Shown: positions 31,465 to 38,202 of the stretch, piece by piece
Position numbering within the stretch: the stretch's first letter is position 1
How the letters are laid out: every line of letters starts with the position of its first letter
DNA from: a phage
Length of the DNA stretch: 64,000 bases
Reading direction: 5' to 3' (one strand)
Sequence record: PZ452594.1
Translations under genes and position numbers: made by a program
Notes under the pieces: generated by a model
Told to the model about the DNA's origin: nothing
The model's database searches: none
What the model saw: only the letters and a program-made list of their open reading frames with translations

Positions 31465-32433
<969 letters not shown>

Positions 32434-32452
<19 letters not shown>

Positions 32453-32922
32453 TCAGTGATAAAGTTATTTAAATTTTGAGCGTATTTCTTTTCATCAAAA
32501 ATCTTTTGCTGTCTGCGTAAACGCCATGGCATTTCAATGAATATGCACCATATTCCTGATAATATTGCTGCTGTAAAAATATTAACAAGTATGGTTAAAA
32601 GAATCCAATCTCCTATTCTGTCCATTGGATTTTTTATAAAAAAGTAAAATACGAATGATGTCACAGGAAGACTAATAATATACCACAGAATCATAATTTT
32701 ATCTGTGAACCAATCAGCGTTCGTTAACTTAGCACGACCATTATGAATACACACGAATTTATCATCTGTTATAATAGATGGCTTAGCTGCTTGATATCCC
32801 ATTCTAAACTCCCTAATCAACAAATTTTTCATATCTTCGGAACAACCATTCCAGTCAACTCTATCAACTGAAATGCCATCATCCCCATCATCTAAATCAT
32901 ACCAGCGAGTTTTTAAAATCAT
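32434..32922 (-). CDS. Membrane protein (162 aa), tandem paralog 1
   Basis: TM helices; C-terminal motif FITECRKLK. Confidence 0.5.
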
Positions 32923-33281
32923 TTAATTTTCCTACAATCACTCACAAACTCTTCCATTGATTCTTTTTCAATATAAGACATGTAGCTATTATATTCCTTT
33001 AATTGTATTTTGTAATCCTTTTTTCTTTGCCAATTTATTTTAAAATTATCATAATGAAAATATAACACTGTACCAAAGAATGAAAATAATGAAATAATTT
33101 TAGTATAGTGAAGTTCACTCCAAACTTCTATTATATTTACTGTGCCGTCAATGTTTAAAATAAGACAGTCAATTAACAATCCAAAAAGACTACCCGCAAG
33201 AGCTGCAGCCAACGCTACAGCAAAAATTAAAAATGACTCAGGAAGAGAATATTTGACTTTATTTAGTTTTGGCTTTTGCAT
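32919..33281 (-). CDS. Membrane protein (120 aa), tandem paralog 2
   Basis: TM helices; C-terminal FVSDCRKIK. Confidence 0.5.
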   Translation of the reverse strand: MQKPKLNKVKYSLPESFLIFAVALAAALAGSLFGLLIDCLILNIDGTVNIIEVWSELHYTKIISLFSFFGTVLYFHYDNFKINWQRKKDYKIQLKEYNSYMSYIEKESMEEFVSDCRKIK

Positions 33282-33655
33282 CGTGATTCCTTAACAAATT
33301 TCATAATTTCATCAAATTCATGCGCAGCAAGTTTAAGCTGATGTTCCTTTTTAATCTTTTTACACTGAGCTTTCCAATCACGTACACGTTTACGATAGTG
33401 TCTTCCTTGATACCAATATCCTATCCAATTTATAGGTACTAATAAAAGCGGAACTACCAATGGAAGAATTAGTGTTGCTCCAAATATTGCACCAGATTCA
33501 ATATCAGTCATAACGTCTATAACTATTCCAGCAATCAACAGAATCACAAATGATACGGCTACCACAGGACCTATTAACACATCAGTAGAAATTATCTGAC
33601 GCTTTAATTCATACTTTAAGGGTTTACTTGGAAGATACATTGATGGCTTTGACAT
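33263..33655 (-). CDS. Membrane protein (130 aa), tandem paralog 3
   Basis: TM helices; C-terminal FVKESRCKSQN. Confidence 0.5.
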   Translation of the reverse strand: MSKPSMYLPSKPLKYELKRQIISTDVLIGPVVAVSFVILLIAGIVIDVMTDIESGAIFGATLILPLVVPLLLVPINWIGYWYQGRHYRKRVRDWKAQCKKIKKEHQLKLAAHEFDEIMKFVKESRCKSQN

Positions 33656-34229
33656 ATTCTCTGCATTCCTTCACAAATTTTTCTAATAATAAATCGCTTT
33701 CAAAATTGGGATTTTCTACGAATTTATCAAAAAGATCATCGACAATAGTTAAGATATTCTTTTTACTAAGAATACGTTTATTTTCATGCTTCGTTTCAGA
33801 ATCAACTATAAGAGTAAAGAAATATTTCTTGCCCTGAAATTTTACAGTAGTATCAATATAGAATAAATTTGACTTTTGTAAATTACGTTTAAACCATGCA
33901 TCACTTAAACTATAAACGCCAAGATAATCATAATCGTCGTTTAAATAACAGACCGTCCATTCAGGAGAAACAAAATCAGTAAATTCAACATCAAAATCAC
34001 ATGTTAATGAATGAATTGATTCAATACTGTTAATAAGTATTCCAGGACGTATTAAAGACTTTTTACCTTTATAAAATCCAGAAAGACTTTCATCAGTTTC
34101 ATATGAAGAACCCCAATAATAATTACGTCCTTCTGCCATACGTTTAAGAGCATTTAATAATTGGTCTGGAACATCAACCTGTCTTTGGAACTCTTCAAAC
34201 ATTGAATTGAAATCACTTTGCATTTTCAT
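33624..34229 (-). CDS. Hypothetical protein (201 aa)
   Basis: ORF; C-terminal FVKECREYVK resembles neighbours' motif. Confidence 0.5.
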   Translation of the reverse strand: MKMQSDFNSMFEEFQRQVDVPDQLLNALKRMAEGRNYYWGSSYETDESLSGFYKGKKSLIRPGILINSIESIHSLTCDFDVEFTDFVSPEWTVCYLNDDYDYLGVYSLSDAWFKRNLQKSNLFYIDTTVKFQGKKYFFTLIVDSETKHENKRILSKKNILTIVDDLFDKFVENPNFESDLLLEKFVKECREYVKAINVSSK

Positions 34230-34270
34230 TCCTACTTACTCCAAGTAATAGGGGCCGAAGCCCCTTATCA

Positions 34271-34864
34271 TTATTTCAGAGAATTAATGTATTCCTGAAC
34301 ATCGGCAGAGGTAGTTTCAACCCCAGAAATATTGCCATTAAAGGTTTCAACTCGAGCAAGAGTATCTTCAATATCAACCTTAGTCAGTGCTGCAATTTCA
34401 ACTACATCATCAGCAGTACTAATTCCGAGGGCATTCGCGGCGCGAGTTTCACGGATATATTCCAATTTAACTGCAAGTTCTTGGCGAGCATCATCTAACT
34501 CAACTACTTTCTTGGCGATTTCAATTCGCATTTCAGCATAACCATCAGCTTTAGTAGTCAACTGCTCAGCTGTTCGACGATATAGTAAACCGAGTTTAGC
34601 ATGCATTGTTACATCTTGACCTTCAGAAAGAAGCTTGCGAATTTCACGCTCTTTTGATTCGGCCTGCTTATTCTTTTCGACAATAAGTTCACGAATACGC
34701 TTTTCTTCATTAATAGATTTAACAGAAGCAGTTTTTAGATCTTTAATCTTATCAAGTAGTTTTGCTGCTGCAGCAGTATACTGCTCTTCAACAGATAGAT
34801 TTTTAGCCATAGCAGAACCAAGTTTAGTGCGAATAAACTCAACAATTTTCTTCAGCATGTTCAT
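34271..34864 (-). CDS. Hypothetical coiled-coil protein (197 aa)
   Basis: Long helical/charged sequence; weak resemblance to PspA-type proteins by eye only. Confidence 0.5.
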
Positions 34865-34941
34865 AGCATTTCCTTTAGTTAATTAAGGGTTTTATAATCC
34901 GTGGGAGTATTATACTCTACTCCCGAGAGTTTGTAAACATG

Positions 34942-36745: not shown

Positions 36746-36820
36746 TGGTATCCCGCCCTGGGATCGAACCAGGACCGCAAACTTAGAAGGATCGTATGCT
36801 ATCCATTACACCAGCGGGAC
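36746..36820 (-). tRNA. tRNA-Arg (anticodon UCU)
   Basis: Cloverleaf read by eye; acceptor GTCCCGC/GCGGGAT, loop CUUCUAA, encoded CCA. Confidence 0.85.
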
Positions 36821-36825
36821 ATAAT

Positions 36826-37491
36826 TTAAAATTTCATTTTTCGACCTTTAAACCATCCTTCTGGAATTGGGTCAGTTTTCTTAATACGTTTAGAAACTTT
36901 TTCATCTAATGAATGAATCCACATCATACCAAATTGGGAATTCTTTTCACCTTTCTGGTGATTATTTTTAGCGTGAATTTCTTTCATTTTATTAATAGTT
37001 TCAAGAGTATGATGCTTATTTAAAAATCTGCTATTATTTAAAAATTTTTCCTTGTATTCAGGAGTTGACCATAAACGTTTAAATACATTTGAACCATTTT
37101 GACGATATTTTTCTTGAAGTAAAATATCATTTTTAAAACGTGACTTAAACGATTTAGCTCCTTTTAAACTAGCGTCTTTCTTCTGATTTAGCATCTCAGG
37201 AATATTTATATGATCCCATCCGCCTTCACCGCCAAGTTTTAAATTATACACATCTGGTCTATTTAAAAACTCTTCTGTGACAATATTTTTCTCGGCTTCA
37301 AGCATAGATTCTTTATCATCAAAATATTCTAATATTTCTTTAGAAAAATTTTCTATACCATACCTGTCTTGGGCTCTTTTTAATAATTTACCAGAACCCA
37401 TATATCCATCATCTAAATTTTCGGTAGAATGCACACCAATATAAATTTTATTATTAATTTTATTTGTTATTTTATAAAGATAAAAATGCAT
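36826..37491 (-). CDS. segB: GIY-YIG homing endonuclease (SegB-like) within tRNA cluster
   Basis: 221 aa from MHFYLYKITN; GIY-YIG motif YLYKITN...IYIGV...YMGSG; ORF-track N-extension overlaps a tRNA. Confidence 0.8.
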   Translation of the reverse strand: MHFYLYKITNKINNKIYIGVHSTENLDDGYMGSGKLLKRAQDRYGIENFSKEILEYFDDKESMLEAEKNIVTEEFLNRPDVYNLKLGGEGGWDHINIPEMLNQKKDASLKGAKSFKSRFKNDILLQEKYRQNGSNVFKRLWSTPEYKEKFLNNSRFLNKHHTLETINKMKEIHAKNNHQKGEKNSQFGMMWIHSLDEKVSKRIKKTDPIPEGWFKGRKMKF

Positions 37492-37537
37492 ATCAGTCCT
37501 TAATAAAGAACTGAGCGTCTCACGACGAGTCATAAAT

Positions 37538-37624
37538 TGGTGGGGAGTGATGGAGTCGAACCACCCGAGTCGCAATGACAATGAATTTACAGTCCACACC
37601 GCTACCTCTACGGGATAACTCCCC
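37538..37624 (-). tRNA. tRNA-Tyr-like (anticodon GUA), type II, additional to the T4 set
   Basis: Perfect 7-bp acceptor GGGGAGT/ACTCCCC, T-arm GGTGG-TTCGACT-CCATC, loop CUGUAAA, variable hairpin, encoded CCA; D-arm non-canonical. Confidence 0.55.
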
Positions 37625-37633
37625 TAATTAATT

Positions 37634-37710
37634 TGGTGACCCAGACCAGATTTGAACTGGTAACCTTTCCCTTATGAGGGGACTGCTGCTAACCATTGAG
37701 CTACAGGGCC
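37634..37710 (-). tRNA. tRNA-Ile (anticodon CAU; could read as Met)
   Basis: Anticodon loop CUCAUAA, T-arm ACCAG-TTCAAAT-CTGGT, CCA encoded; D-stem irregular (TTAGCAGCAG). Confidence 0.65.
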
Positions 37711-37711
37711 T

Positions 37712-37787
37712 TGGTGCTGATTGACGGAATCGAACCGCCGACCTTCTCATTACAAGTGAGTTGCTCTACCTACTGAGCTAAATCAGC
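37712..37787 (-). tRNA. tRNA-Thr (anticodon UGU)
   Basis: Acceptor GCTGATT/AATCAGC, loop CUUGUAA, CCA encoded. Confidence 0.85.
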
Positions 37788-37789
37788 AA

Positions 37790-37876
37790 CGGAGGCGATA
37801 GGATTCGAACCTATGAATCGCCGGAGCGACTGCCGGTTTTCAAGACCGGTGCATTAAACCACTCTGCCACGCCTCC
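37790..37876 (-). tRNA. tRNA-Ser (anticodon UGA), type II
   Basis: Acceptor GGAGGCG/CGCCTCC, loop CUUGAAA, long variable arm; CCA not encoded. Confidence 0.85.
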
Positions 37877-37878
37877 AG

Positions 37879-37952
37879 TCTCCATACAAGGATTTGAACC
37901 TTGGACCTCCTGATCCCAAATCAGGCGCTCTACCAAACTGAGCTACACGGAG
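37879..37952 (-). tRNA. tRNA-Pro (anticodon UGG)
   Basis: Anticodon stem-loop CCTGA-TTTGGGA-TCAGG; abuts tRNA-Ser (dimeric precursor). Confidence 0.85.
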
Positions 37953-37962
37953 TAAATTAAAT

Positions 37963-38036
<74 letters not shown>

Positions 38037-38041
38037 AAATT

Positions 38042-38128
38042 TGGTGCGAGAAGTGGGACTCGAACCCACAAGGAAATCATTCCGCAGCATTTTAAGTGCT
38101 GTGCCTTTACCAATTTGACCATTCTCGC
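38042..38128 (-). tRNA. tRNA-Leu (anticodon UAA), type II
   Basis: GCGAGAATGGTCAAATTGGTAAAGGCACAGCACTTAAAATGCTG...; CCA encoded. Confidence 0.9.
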
Positions 38129-38129
38129 G

Positions 38130-38202
38130 CTGGGAATAAAGGACTCGAACCTTTGCATCCTGGAATCAAAATCCAGTGCCTTACCAACTTGGCTAATTCC
38201 CA
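38130..38202 (-). tRNA. tRNA-Gln (anticodon UUG)
   Basis: Anticodon stem-loop CTGGA-TTTTGAT-TCCAG; abuts tRNA-Leu. Confidence 0.85.

Follow-up and report, generated by a model that had tools for sequence, protein, structure and literature searches.

A conserved C-terminal motif near the overlapping ends of the early genes e.2, e.3, e.4 and e.5 in a T4-like phage

Between the genes e.6 and nudE of the T4-like phage in sequence record PZ452594.1, positions 32434-34229 of the 64,000-nucleotide (nt) stretch analyzed here (the window) hold four small open reading frames (ORFs), e.2, e.3, e.4 and e.5, which overlap one another and whose products finish in, or close to, much the same short peptide. 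The question raised by this locus is whether that peptide was inherited through gene duplication, is dictated by the DNA of the gene junctions, or is maintained for the sake of the proteins. The codon usage and distribution of the motif pointed to the last of these, and our preferred, if tentative, reading is that it forms a shared cytoplasmic tip on proteins whose translation is probably coupled.

Genes e.2 to e.5 and their C-terminal motif

The studied stretch is part of a Tequatrovirus (T4-like) genome. Its 1.8 kilobases (kb) exhibited 99% nucleotide identity with Shigella phage ESh31 and matched 505 Tequatrovirus phage records at 90-99% identity. The gene order on the minus strand was denV, e (lysozyme), nudE, e.2, e.3, e.4, e.5, e.6, e.7, e.8 and the tRNA cluster, which places e.2-e.5 between e.6 and nudE/e as expected for the T4 orthologue groups, and the identity of the four proteins to their T4 counterparts was 84-92%. 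The block consists of the following genes:

32434..32922, minus strand: gene e.2, 162 amino acids (aa), PHROG 2203 (E = 4e-79, full length)
32919..33281, minus strand: gene e.3, 120 aa, PHROG 2330 (E = 3e-60, full length)
33263..33655, minus strand: gene e.4, 130 aa, PHROG 2604 (E = 2e-69, full length)
33624..34229, minus strand: gene e.5, 201 aa, PHROG 2607 (E = 1e-107, full length)
31997..32437, minus strand: nudE (Nudix hydrolase), last gene of the overlapping block e.5-e.4-e.3-e.2-nudE, Pfam NUDIX (E = 4e-13)

A preliminary description of this DNA, made from the letters alone, had reported three consecutive ORFs with transmembrane (TM) helices, and these were recovered at the same minus-strand positions as e.2 and e.4, each with two clear TM segments, and e.3, with one clear and one weaker segment. 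Their placement "downstream of nudE" holds in plus-strand coordinates only, since by transcription the genes lie upstream of nudE. The shared C-terminal motif to which it drew attention was confirmed in e.2 and e.3 and, as a variant with S in place of C, in e.4, and was restricted to the ends of these genes. The related peptide FVKECREYVK that it had assigned to the very end of e.5 is indeed present in that protein, with the motif 10 residues ahead of the stop codon rather than terminal. Closer examination of the four C-termini revealed the consensus Φ-x-x-F-[IV]-x-[EDG]-C-R (Φ, hydrophobic residue) near the end of each protein, encoded as follows:

32437..32463, minus strand: e.2 motif F-I-T-E-C-R-K-L-K, protein end FITECRKLK
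32928..32948, minus strand: e.3 motif F-V-S-D-C-R-K, protein end EEFVSDCRKIK
33275..33298, minus strand: e.4 motif variant F-V-K-E-S-R-C-K, protein end MKFVKESRCKSQN, tail FVKESRCKSQN
33657..33677, minus strand: e.5 motif F-V-K-E-C-R-E, protein end EKFVKECREYVKAINVSSK

Across the e.4 family the Cys of the motif is replaced by S, I or V, and the C-terminal helix of e.5 ends in LLLEKFVKECREYVKAINVSSK directly ahead of the stop codon. When the 64-kb window was translated in all six frames, the pattern F[IV].[ED]CRK occurred only at the ends of e.2 and e.3 and the pattern [ED]CR[KE] only at the ends of e.2, e.3 and e.5, while F[IVL].[EDG]C[RK] was absent from the six frames of a further 74 kb of T4. 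These scans covered a total of ~138 kb of T4-type sequence, with the T4 late genes (~99-145 kb) lying outside them. The clustering of the motif at these gene ends is far beyond chance.

A single-sequence search reached Tequatrovirus only, and orthologues in other genera were found by tblastn as well as by alignment-based and profile searches. The motif was kept in at least five genera; orthologues from Mosigvirus, Gaprivervirus, Dhakavirus-type phages and Kanagawavirus, at 25-50% identity, carried it in the following forms:

Mosigvirus e.5: FIMECREYVK, followed by further residues
Mosigvirus e.4: protein end FVKEIRCKSLNS
Mosigvirus e.3: protein end FIKECRK
Gaprivervirus e.5: FIAECREYAK, followed by further residues
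Gaprivervirus e.4: protein end FIKEVRNGTA
Gaprivervirus e.3: protein end FIKECKS (K in place of R)
Dhakavirus-type e.2: protein end FIEECRK
Kanagawavirus e.2: protein end FIKGCRDGSN

The e.3 orthologues ending in FIKECRK and FIKECKS showed 39% and 28% identity, respectively. The motif was also observed in an otherwise unrelated-looking ORF133c-like protein with two TM segments (RB69-type; Mosigvirus, 101 aa), which ends in FIKECRGK. An exhaustive hidden Markov model (HMM) search of 1.84 billion representative proteins detected e.2 relatives in only 23 clusters, and all full-length remote relatives among these end in [FW]-[IV]-x-x-C-R; no e.2 relative was present among 185,579 bacterial species genomes. 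Past the N-terminal domain, an alignment of 17 e.2 sequences had no invariant residues other than F154, C158 and R159. When non-overlapping windows were ranked by conservation, the motif window was in the top three for every family and in first place for e.5, in which the nine residues ECREYVKAI had an identity of 0.85 compared with a protein mean of 0.28.

The codons for these residues varied between phages while the residues themselves were kept (Cys, TGT/TGC; Arg, AGG/AGA/CGT/CGA/CGC; Phe, TTT/TTC; [IV], GTG/GTT/ATC/ATT), which indicates that selection acts on the peptide. The preliminary description had made its case depend on the motif being conserved in orthologues, and in orthologues it was kept.

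The genes as such are already known hypothetical genes. The T4 versions of e.2-e.5, which are the same genes as those in this phage, appear in databases as four separate families with "conserved hypothetical" labels, and e.2, e.3 and e.4 are listed as "predicted membrane protein" in the T4 annotation (PMC11879866). The annotations and literature searched contained no description of the shared motif, of its presence in e.5 and RB69 ORF133c, of its overlap with the next start or of a role as deletion joint, and no paper discussing the function of e.2-e.5 was found in the same literature. The shared motif, the dual coding and the deletion-joint role are apparently undescribed. Most T4 early genes are without an assigned function, and a motif that extends across at least five genera and four or five dissimilar proteins provides a concrete handle on some of them.

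Overlapping reading frames, junction repeats and gene loss

Consecutive reading frames of the block overlap by 32 nt (e.5/e.4), 19 nt (e.4/e.3), 4 nt (e.3/e.2) and 4 nt (e.2/nudE), with no intergenic gaps. Given these overlapping, co-directional frames, translation of the e.5-nudE block is probably coupled. Most junctions, in this phage as well as in others, contained a Shine-Dalgarno-like sequence (AAGGAA, GAGGAA, AAAGGA or AGGAAA) within the motif, at a distance of 5-10 nt from the ATG that follows; depending on spacing, it falls on the K-E or on the R-K codons. The motif DNA can double as a ribosome-binding site because its codons are purine-rich (AAG GAA, AGG AAA). For nudE, the Shine-Dalgarno sequence is supplied by the R-K codons of e.2, AGG AAA, and the nudE ATG shares bases with the stop codon of e.2 (ATGA). 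Similarly, the e.3 codons TGT AGG AAA hold the Shine-Dalgarno sequence of e.2, with an ATGA stop/start overlap at 32919-32922. The ATG of e.3 (33281) is preceded, at a distance of 6 nt, by a Shine-Dalgarno sequence made up of the e.4 K-E codons, AAG GAA. The e.4 tail RCKSQN and the e.3 N-terminus MQKPKL share their coding bases, and the e.4 start codon (33655-33653) lies within the E-Y-V codons that follow the e.5 motif. At the e.5/e.4 junction of Mosigvirus and Gaprivervirus the Shine-Dalgarno sequence was weak or absent.

The start of nudE falls into one of these overlaps. Both the longest nudE ORF and the T4 annotation begin at 32452 (MQEIKMKTL...), at an ATG that arises from the codons for E-C in the e.2 motif and has no Shine-Dalgarno sequence. 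The ATG at 32437 (MKTLSAG...) is preceded by AGGAAA 7 nt upstream and equals the start in T2 and other orthologues; it is probably the true start. The ATG within the E-C codons (GAATGY) was also considered as a general start signal and was judged coincidental, being in frame for nudE only and having no Shine-Dalgarno sequence.

Neither promoters nor terminators were found at the e.5-nudE junctions. Folding of the junction RNAs gave z-scores of +1.8, +0.5, -0.9 and +0.5, no better than shuffled sequence, and Rfam returned zero matches at the junctions, the tRNA cluster alone being matched. On these two results, we rejected the possibility that the junctions contain a conserved RNA structure or belong to a known RNA family.

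The two boundaries of e.2 carry an imperfect repeat:

32919..32936, minus strand: 18-nt junction repeat copy A, tgtaggaaaattaaATGa, at the e.3/e.2 boundary
32434..32451, minus strand: 18-nt junction repeat copy B, tgcaggaaattaaaATGa, at the e.2/nudE boundary, matching copy A at 15/18 positions

In T2-type genomes precisely e.2 is missing, and the join falls within this repeat; their e.3/nudE junction is e.3-like up to GAT and identical to copy B from there on. Alignments to genomes without e.2 break off right at position 486 of the query, corresponding to 32919 of the window. Two further rearrangements were observed, both with intact junctions. Phages UFV10 and UFV05 carry an in-frame fusion of the e.4 N-terminus to the TM and tail part of e.2 (e.4::e.2) and have no e.3, and in a Gaprivervirus-like metagenomic contig without e.4, e.5 runs directly into e.3. 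The e.5 gene was kept in all three loss cases (T2, UFV10 and the Gaprivervirus-like contig). In laboratory T4, a frameshift splits or truncates e.2 (309 nt, 102 aa; HM137666.1 e.2a/e.2b; PMC11879866 supplementary file 8) and separates the part comprising TM2, tail and motif from the N-terminal domain, while most wild Tequatroviruses carry the intact 162-aa gene. The near-identical junctions have served as crossover points for the loss or fusion of single cassettes, and one stretch of DNA is here under three constraints, as peptide motif, as ribosome-binding site and start of the next gene, and as recombination joint.

These constraints give rise to the alternative that the motif is a by-product of a nucleotide-level junction cassette composed of ribosome-binding site, spacer, start and recombination site. 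Beyond the Shine-Dalgarno-like sequences inside the motif and the joining of T2-type genomes exactly at the repeats that flank e.2, this would fit the extra [LI]-K-stop/ATGA extension shared by e.2 and e.3 of Tequatrovirus, which suggests homogenised junctions, as well as the lack of structure in the junction RNAs, a property of open translation start regions. However, F, [IV], C and R persist despite synonymous and multi-position codon changes (AGG/CGT, GTG/ATT), and F-[IV] and the Cys lie outside any Shine-Dalgarno requirement. The Shine-Dalgarno sequence itself moves between motif codons, and where it is weak or absent, at the Mosigvirus and Gaprivervirus e.5/e.4 junction, ECREY is nevertheless invariant. 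Furthermore, the motif is kept whatever follows it, be it nudE, a 78-aa ORF, ORF139c or a 228-aa protein. Constraint on the junction cassette contributes to the conservation but leaves the pattern of synonymous changes unexplained, and as the origin of the motif we regard it as quite improbable.

The junctions also invite comparison with the promoter-early stem-loop cassettes (PeSLs), which mediate the shuffling of modules in genomes of the T4 type (Arbiol et al. 2010, PMC2839356; Comeau et al. 2014, PMC4122927). Both are short conserved boundary sequences flanking ORFs that are gained, lost or swapped in a variable region. PeSLs, however, are intergenic and comprise a promoter and a terminator, whereas the e.2-e.5 junctions are coding, have no promoter or hairpin and are under selection at the amino-acid level. 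The junctions resemble PeSL shuffling in function and fail the defining features of PeSLs.

Predicted topology and a candidate role of the motif

All TM assignments rest on Kyte-Doolittle hydropathy with a 19-residue window. In e.2, an N-terminal soluble domain of ~75 aa is followed by TM helices at residues 78-96 and 111-133 (peaks 1.99 and 2.33) and a helical tail. TM helices of e.4 were placed at residues 31-49 and 57-75 (peaks 2.86 and 2.51), followed by a long basic tail. TM1 of e.3 was located at residues 19-37 (peak 2.47); its weaker second segment (scored at ~57-75; probable TM2, ~57-78) reached a peak of 1.19, below threshold in this phage, and the corresponding segment was clear in the Gaprivervirus orthologue (score 2.13). 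A long hydrophobic stretch is present in Kanagawavirus e.2. K and R were enriched in the N-termini and tails of all three proteins, a positive-inside pattern, and they are predicted to be small inner-membrane hairpin proteins with both ends in the cytoplasm. They share a layout in which a short basic N-terminus or N-terminal domain is followed by the TM hairpin, a membrane-proximal K/R-rich stretch, a polar helical tail and, lastly, the motif. The same scan detected no TM helix in e.5, which is predicted to be soluble.

The AlphaFold2 (AF2) model of e.2 (predicted local distance difference test score, pLDDT, 80) is a helical hairpin with one helix at 74-95 and one unbroken helix at 103-161 that includes TM2 and the tail. 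The model places the motif at the tip of a stalk of ~30 residues that would continue TM2. The e.5 model was poor (pLDDT 56), with a helix at 180-195 spanning the motif, and its pLDDT was too low to justify a fold search. The N-terminal domain of e.2 (L-[DE]-D-x-x-x-G...DW...K..L) occurred as three tandem repeats in a 223-aa metagenomic protein (P0162) without a TM region or tail, and on account of this arrangement it is considered an independent module.

Our preferred reading takes e.5, e.4, e.3 and e.2 as one co-directional, translationally coupled block of T-even early accessory genes that runs into nudE. The motif would form a small hydrophobic patch (Φ-x-x-F-Φ) together with Cys-Arg at the cytoplasmic tip of a polar, K/R-rich helix extending from TM2, and this tip would act at the protein level as a docking or assembly motif on three or four membrane hairpins and on soluble e.5. 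The tip might join the four products into a membrane-anchored complex, with e.5 as a peripheral subunit recruited to the membrane; alternatively, all of them might have a common binding partner, from phage or host, on the inner face of the membrane. Either way, the products of e.2-e.5 are predicted to meet the same partner or each other. The motif is separable from the rest of the protein, as it is carried by soluble e.5 and by ORF133c and as the similarity detected by hhalign between the families lies wholly within it. The arrangement is also like that of ATGA-type coupled gene blocks encoding one complex, with overlaps of 4-32 nt, Shine-Dalgarno sequences inside the upstream ORF and no gaps; it differs from them in that members are individually lost here and that the complex is a putative one. 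With docking function and partner both conjectural, we would put this reading at slightly less than an even prospect.

Several observations weigh against it. The e.4 proteins have no Cys at the motif position. Individual members have been lost in natural phages, which together with the truncated e.2 of laboratory T4 makes a strictly stoichiometric complex unlikely. The hydrophobic moment of 11 of 13 tails equalled that of shuffled sequence, so that neither amphipathic tails nor a classical coiled-coil assembly is supported. Knockdown of T4 e.2-e.8 by CRISPRi-ART had no laboratory fitness effect ("Not Fit"; PMC11879866, supplementary file 15), leaving no phenotype to anchor a function; e.2-e.5 are dispensable in the laboratory. 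Finally, the overlapping translation signals could account for part of the conservation. If the motif were merely a structural cap, it would amount to a minor annotation note.

The near-invariance of Cys-Arg suggested a different role, in which these residues would be chemically active, as an inter-subunit metal or redox ligand or as a modification site (e.g. for ADP-ribosylation by T4 Alt/Mod) linked to NudE. Cys-Arg is invariant in the e.2 family up to its most remote relatives and is kept in e.3, e.5 and ORF133c. In addition, three genera show linkage of e.2 to nudE, and the substrates given for the neighbouring NudE are ADP-ribose, FAD and Ap3A (Xu et al. 2002, as cited in PMC1524935). The replacement of the Cys by S, I or V in e.4 and of the Arg by K in Gaprivervirus e.3 argues against such chemistry, and a lone cytoplasmic Cys is a weak metal site. 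Moreover, neither HMM libraries searched with e.2-e.5 nor Foldseek of the e.2 model revealed homology to an enzyme or metal-binding family, and the "sulfurtransferase" label seen in GenBank was without HMM support. We consider an active Cys-Arg very unlikely.

Equally speculative is a wider view, in which Φ-x-x-F-[IV]-x-x-C-R would be an unrecognised "address tag" by which otherwise unrelated T-even early proteins plug into a single target in the cytoplasm or into one another. It would define a new modular membrane-associated system, with Cys-Arg as a regulated modification or metal site tied to NudE and with the coding junctions as joints for swapping members. We mention it as a long shot.

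Relationship among the families and annotation of the region

The preliminary description had proposed a duplicated family of small inner-membrane proteins, a class that includes superinfection-exclusion and immunity proteins. Under this alternative, e.2, e.3 and e.4 would be tandem duplicates of one ancestral membrane-protein gene that inherited the motif and act like the exclusion proteins Imm and Sp. The common architecture and the adjacency of the genes in this window agree with such an origin, as do the viability in nature of the in-frame e.4::e.2 chimera and the individual dispensability of the members, which would be expected of redundant paralogues. Hints of homology beyond the motif were confined to e.3 and e.4. 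These two share an M-x-K-P-x-L N-terminus, and the DNA at their junctions is similar, with a 16-nt repeat of 94% identity and, in addition, ATGTCAAAGCC vs ATGCAAAAGCC. An hhalign comparison of e.3 with e.4 covered 87 columns at a probability (Prob) of 79% in one run and 42 columns in another, and e.3 matched the PHROG of e.4 weakly (E = 0.046).

With the motif included, hhalign gave P = 1e-5 to 1e-6 among e.3, e.4, the C-terminal half of e.2 and ORF133c. Once the motif and the three preceding residues were removed, however, all family pairs dropped to Prob <10% (P 0.004-0.13), the level of controls against the unrelated T4 membrane proteins Imm, Sp and Ac. Gene order did not favour tandem duplication either. 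While e.5-e.4-e.3 were adjacent in Tequatrovirus, Mosigvirus and Gaprivervirus, e.2 adjoined nudE far from e.3 in the Dhakavirus-type phage 212 (whose e.2 is identical to the JS10-type e.2) and in Kanagawavirus, and the two genes were ~5 kb apart in Gaprivervirus-type genomes with both. The remoteness of e.2 from e.3 in other genera, with several kb of genes in between, indicates that their adjacency in this window is secondary. The motif is, moreover, also present in soluble e.5. The membrane prediction of the preliminary description stood, and its claim of paralogy was supported only in part, as the similarity vanished without the motif, e.2 was not adjacent to e.3 elsewhere and e.5 is soluble. 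Judged from sequence comparison, a single tandem-duplicated family is not supported, with homology along the proteins and conserved tandem order both failing, although an ancient duplication of e.3/e.4 is possible. The safest description is that proteins of similar architecture have a C-terminal module in common.

The suggested kinship to immunity proteins turned out to be an analogy only. Comparison of Imm, Imm.1, Sp and Ac with e.2-e.5 gave a best blastp E of >=0.2 and an hhalign Prob of <=3.7%, and PADLOC, NCBIfam and Pfam (in a set without the PF26896 and PF26876 models) yielded zero matches for e.2-e.5. Like Imm, Sp and other small T4 membrane proteins (Ac, 52.1, 55.8 and Ndd.3), e.2-e.4 are small, early, non-essential and assigned to the inner membrane/periplasm. 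Imm and Sp differ in having no comparable conserved C-terminal tail, Sp is periplasmic, and both work via TM or periplasmic parts, whereas the conserved part of e.2-e.4 is predicted to be cytoplasmic. Taken together with the loss of similarity outside the motif, tandem duplicates acting as exclusion proteins appear unlikely to us.

With regard to database families, proteins 98-99% identical to those of this phage carry the precomputed Pfam assignments PF26896 (e.2) and PF26876 (e.5). The e.4::e.2 chimera carries PF26873 and PF26896, and PF26873 is probably a further Pfam family of the T4 e.2-e.5 genes. PDB sequence searches with e.2-e.5 returned nothing above noise, and Foldseek of the e.2 model against PDB gave a best E-value of 3. 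In several genomes, GenBank entries label e.3/e.4 as "sulfurtransferase", "DNA primase" or "major capsid protein", and several deposited genomes name e.6 "host specificity protein". The HMM libraries gave no support for any of these names, which look like propagated misannotations. Annotators should be aware that the e.3/e.4 labels are spreading without support.

The 197-aa product of e.6 (34271-34864) is highly conserved, consists largely of coiled coil, looks PspA-like by eye and had no Pfam or PDB sequence match. The gene is preceded by the best early-promoter-like site of the region (TTTACA-17-TATAAT, 11/12, 34909-34937), and a GC-rich hairpin, GGGGCTTCGGCCCC, is located at 34250-34265, after e.6 and just before e.5.

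Two protein groups absent from Tequatrovirus were observed in the corresponding variable region of other genera. Directly downstream of e.3, Mosigvirus (L001:3357-4151) and Gaprivervirus (L003:3691-4743) carry three to four tandem genes for small, acidic, soluble proteins of 65-101 aa that end in W-[VF]-x-S-S-x-x-C (WVSSSALC, WVASSHTC, WVSSSYSC, WFNSSMSC and WYPSSC), a second conserved C-terminal Cys motif of the same variable region. A highly conserved 228-aa protein (motif PGWYPAIPGYHHDDVPRPD) is encoded immediately upstream of e.2 in Dhakavirus-type phages and Kanagawavirus (L005:2722-3408 and L006:2743-3429) and downstream of ORF133c in Mosigvirus (ORF start, L001:6088).

Beyond e.8, eight minus-strand tRNA genes are clustered at 36749-38202, and a GIY-YIG homing-endonuclease ORF (SegB-like; 36826-37599) is embedded between tRNAs 1 and 2, in an arrangement known from T4.

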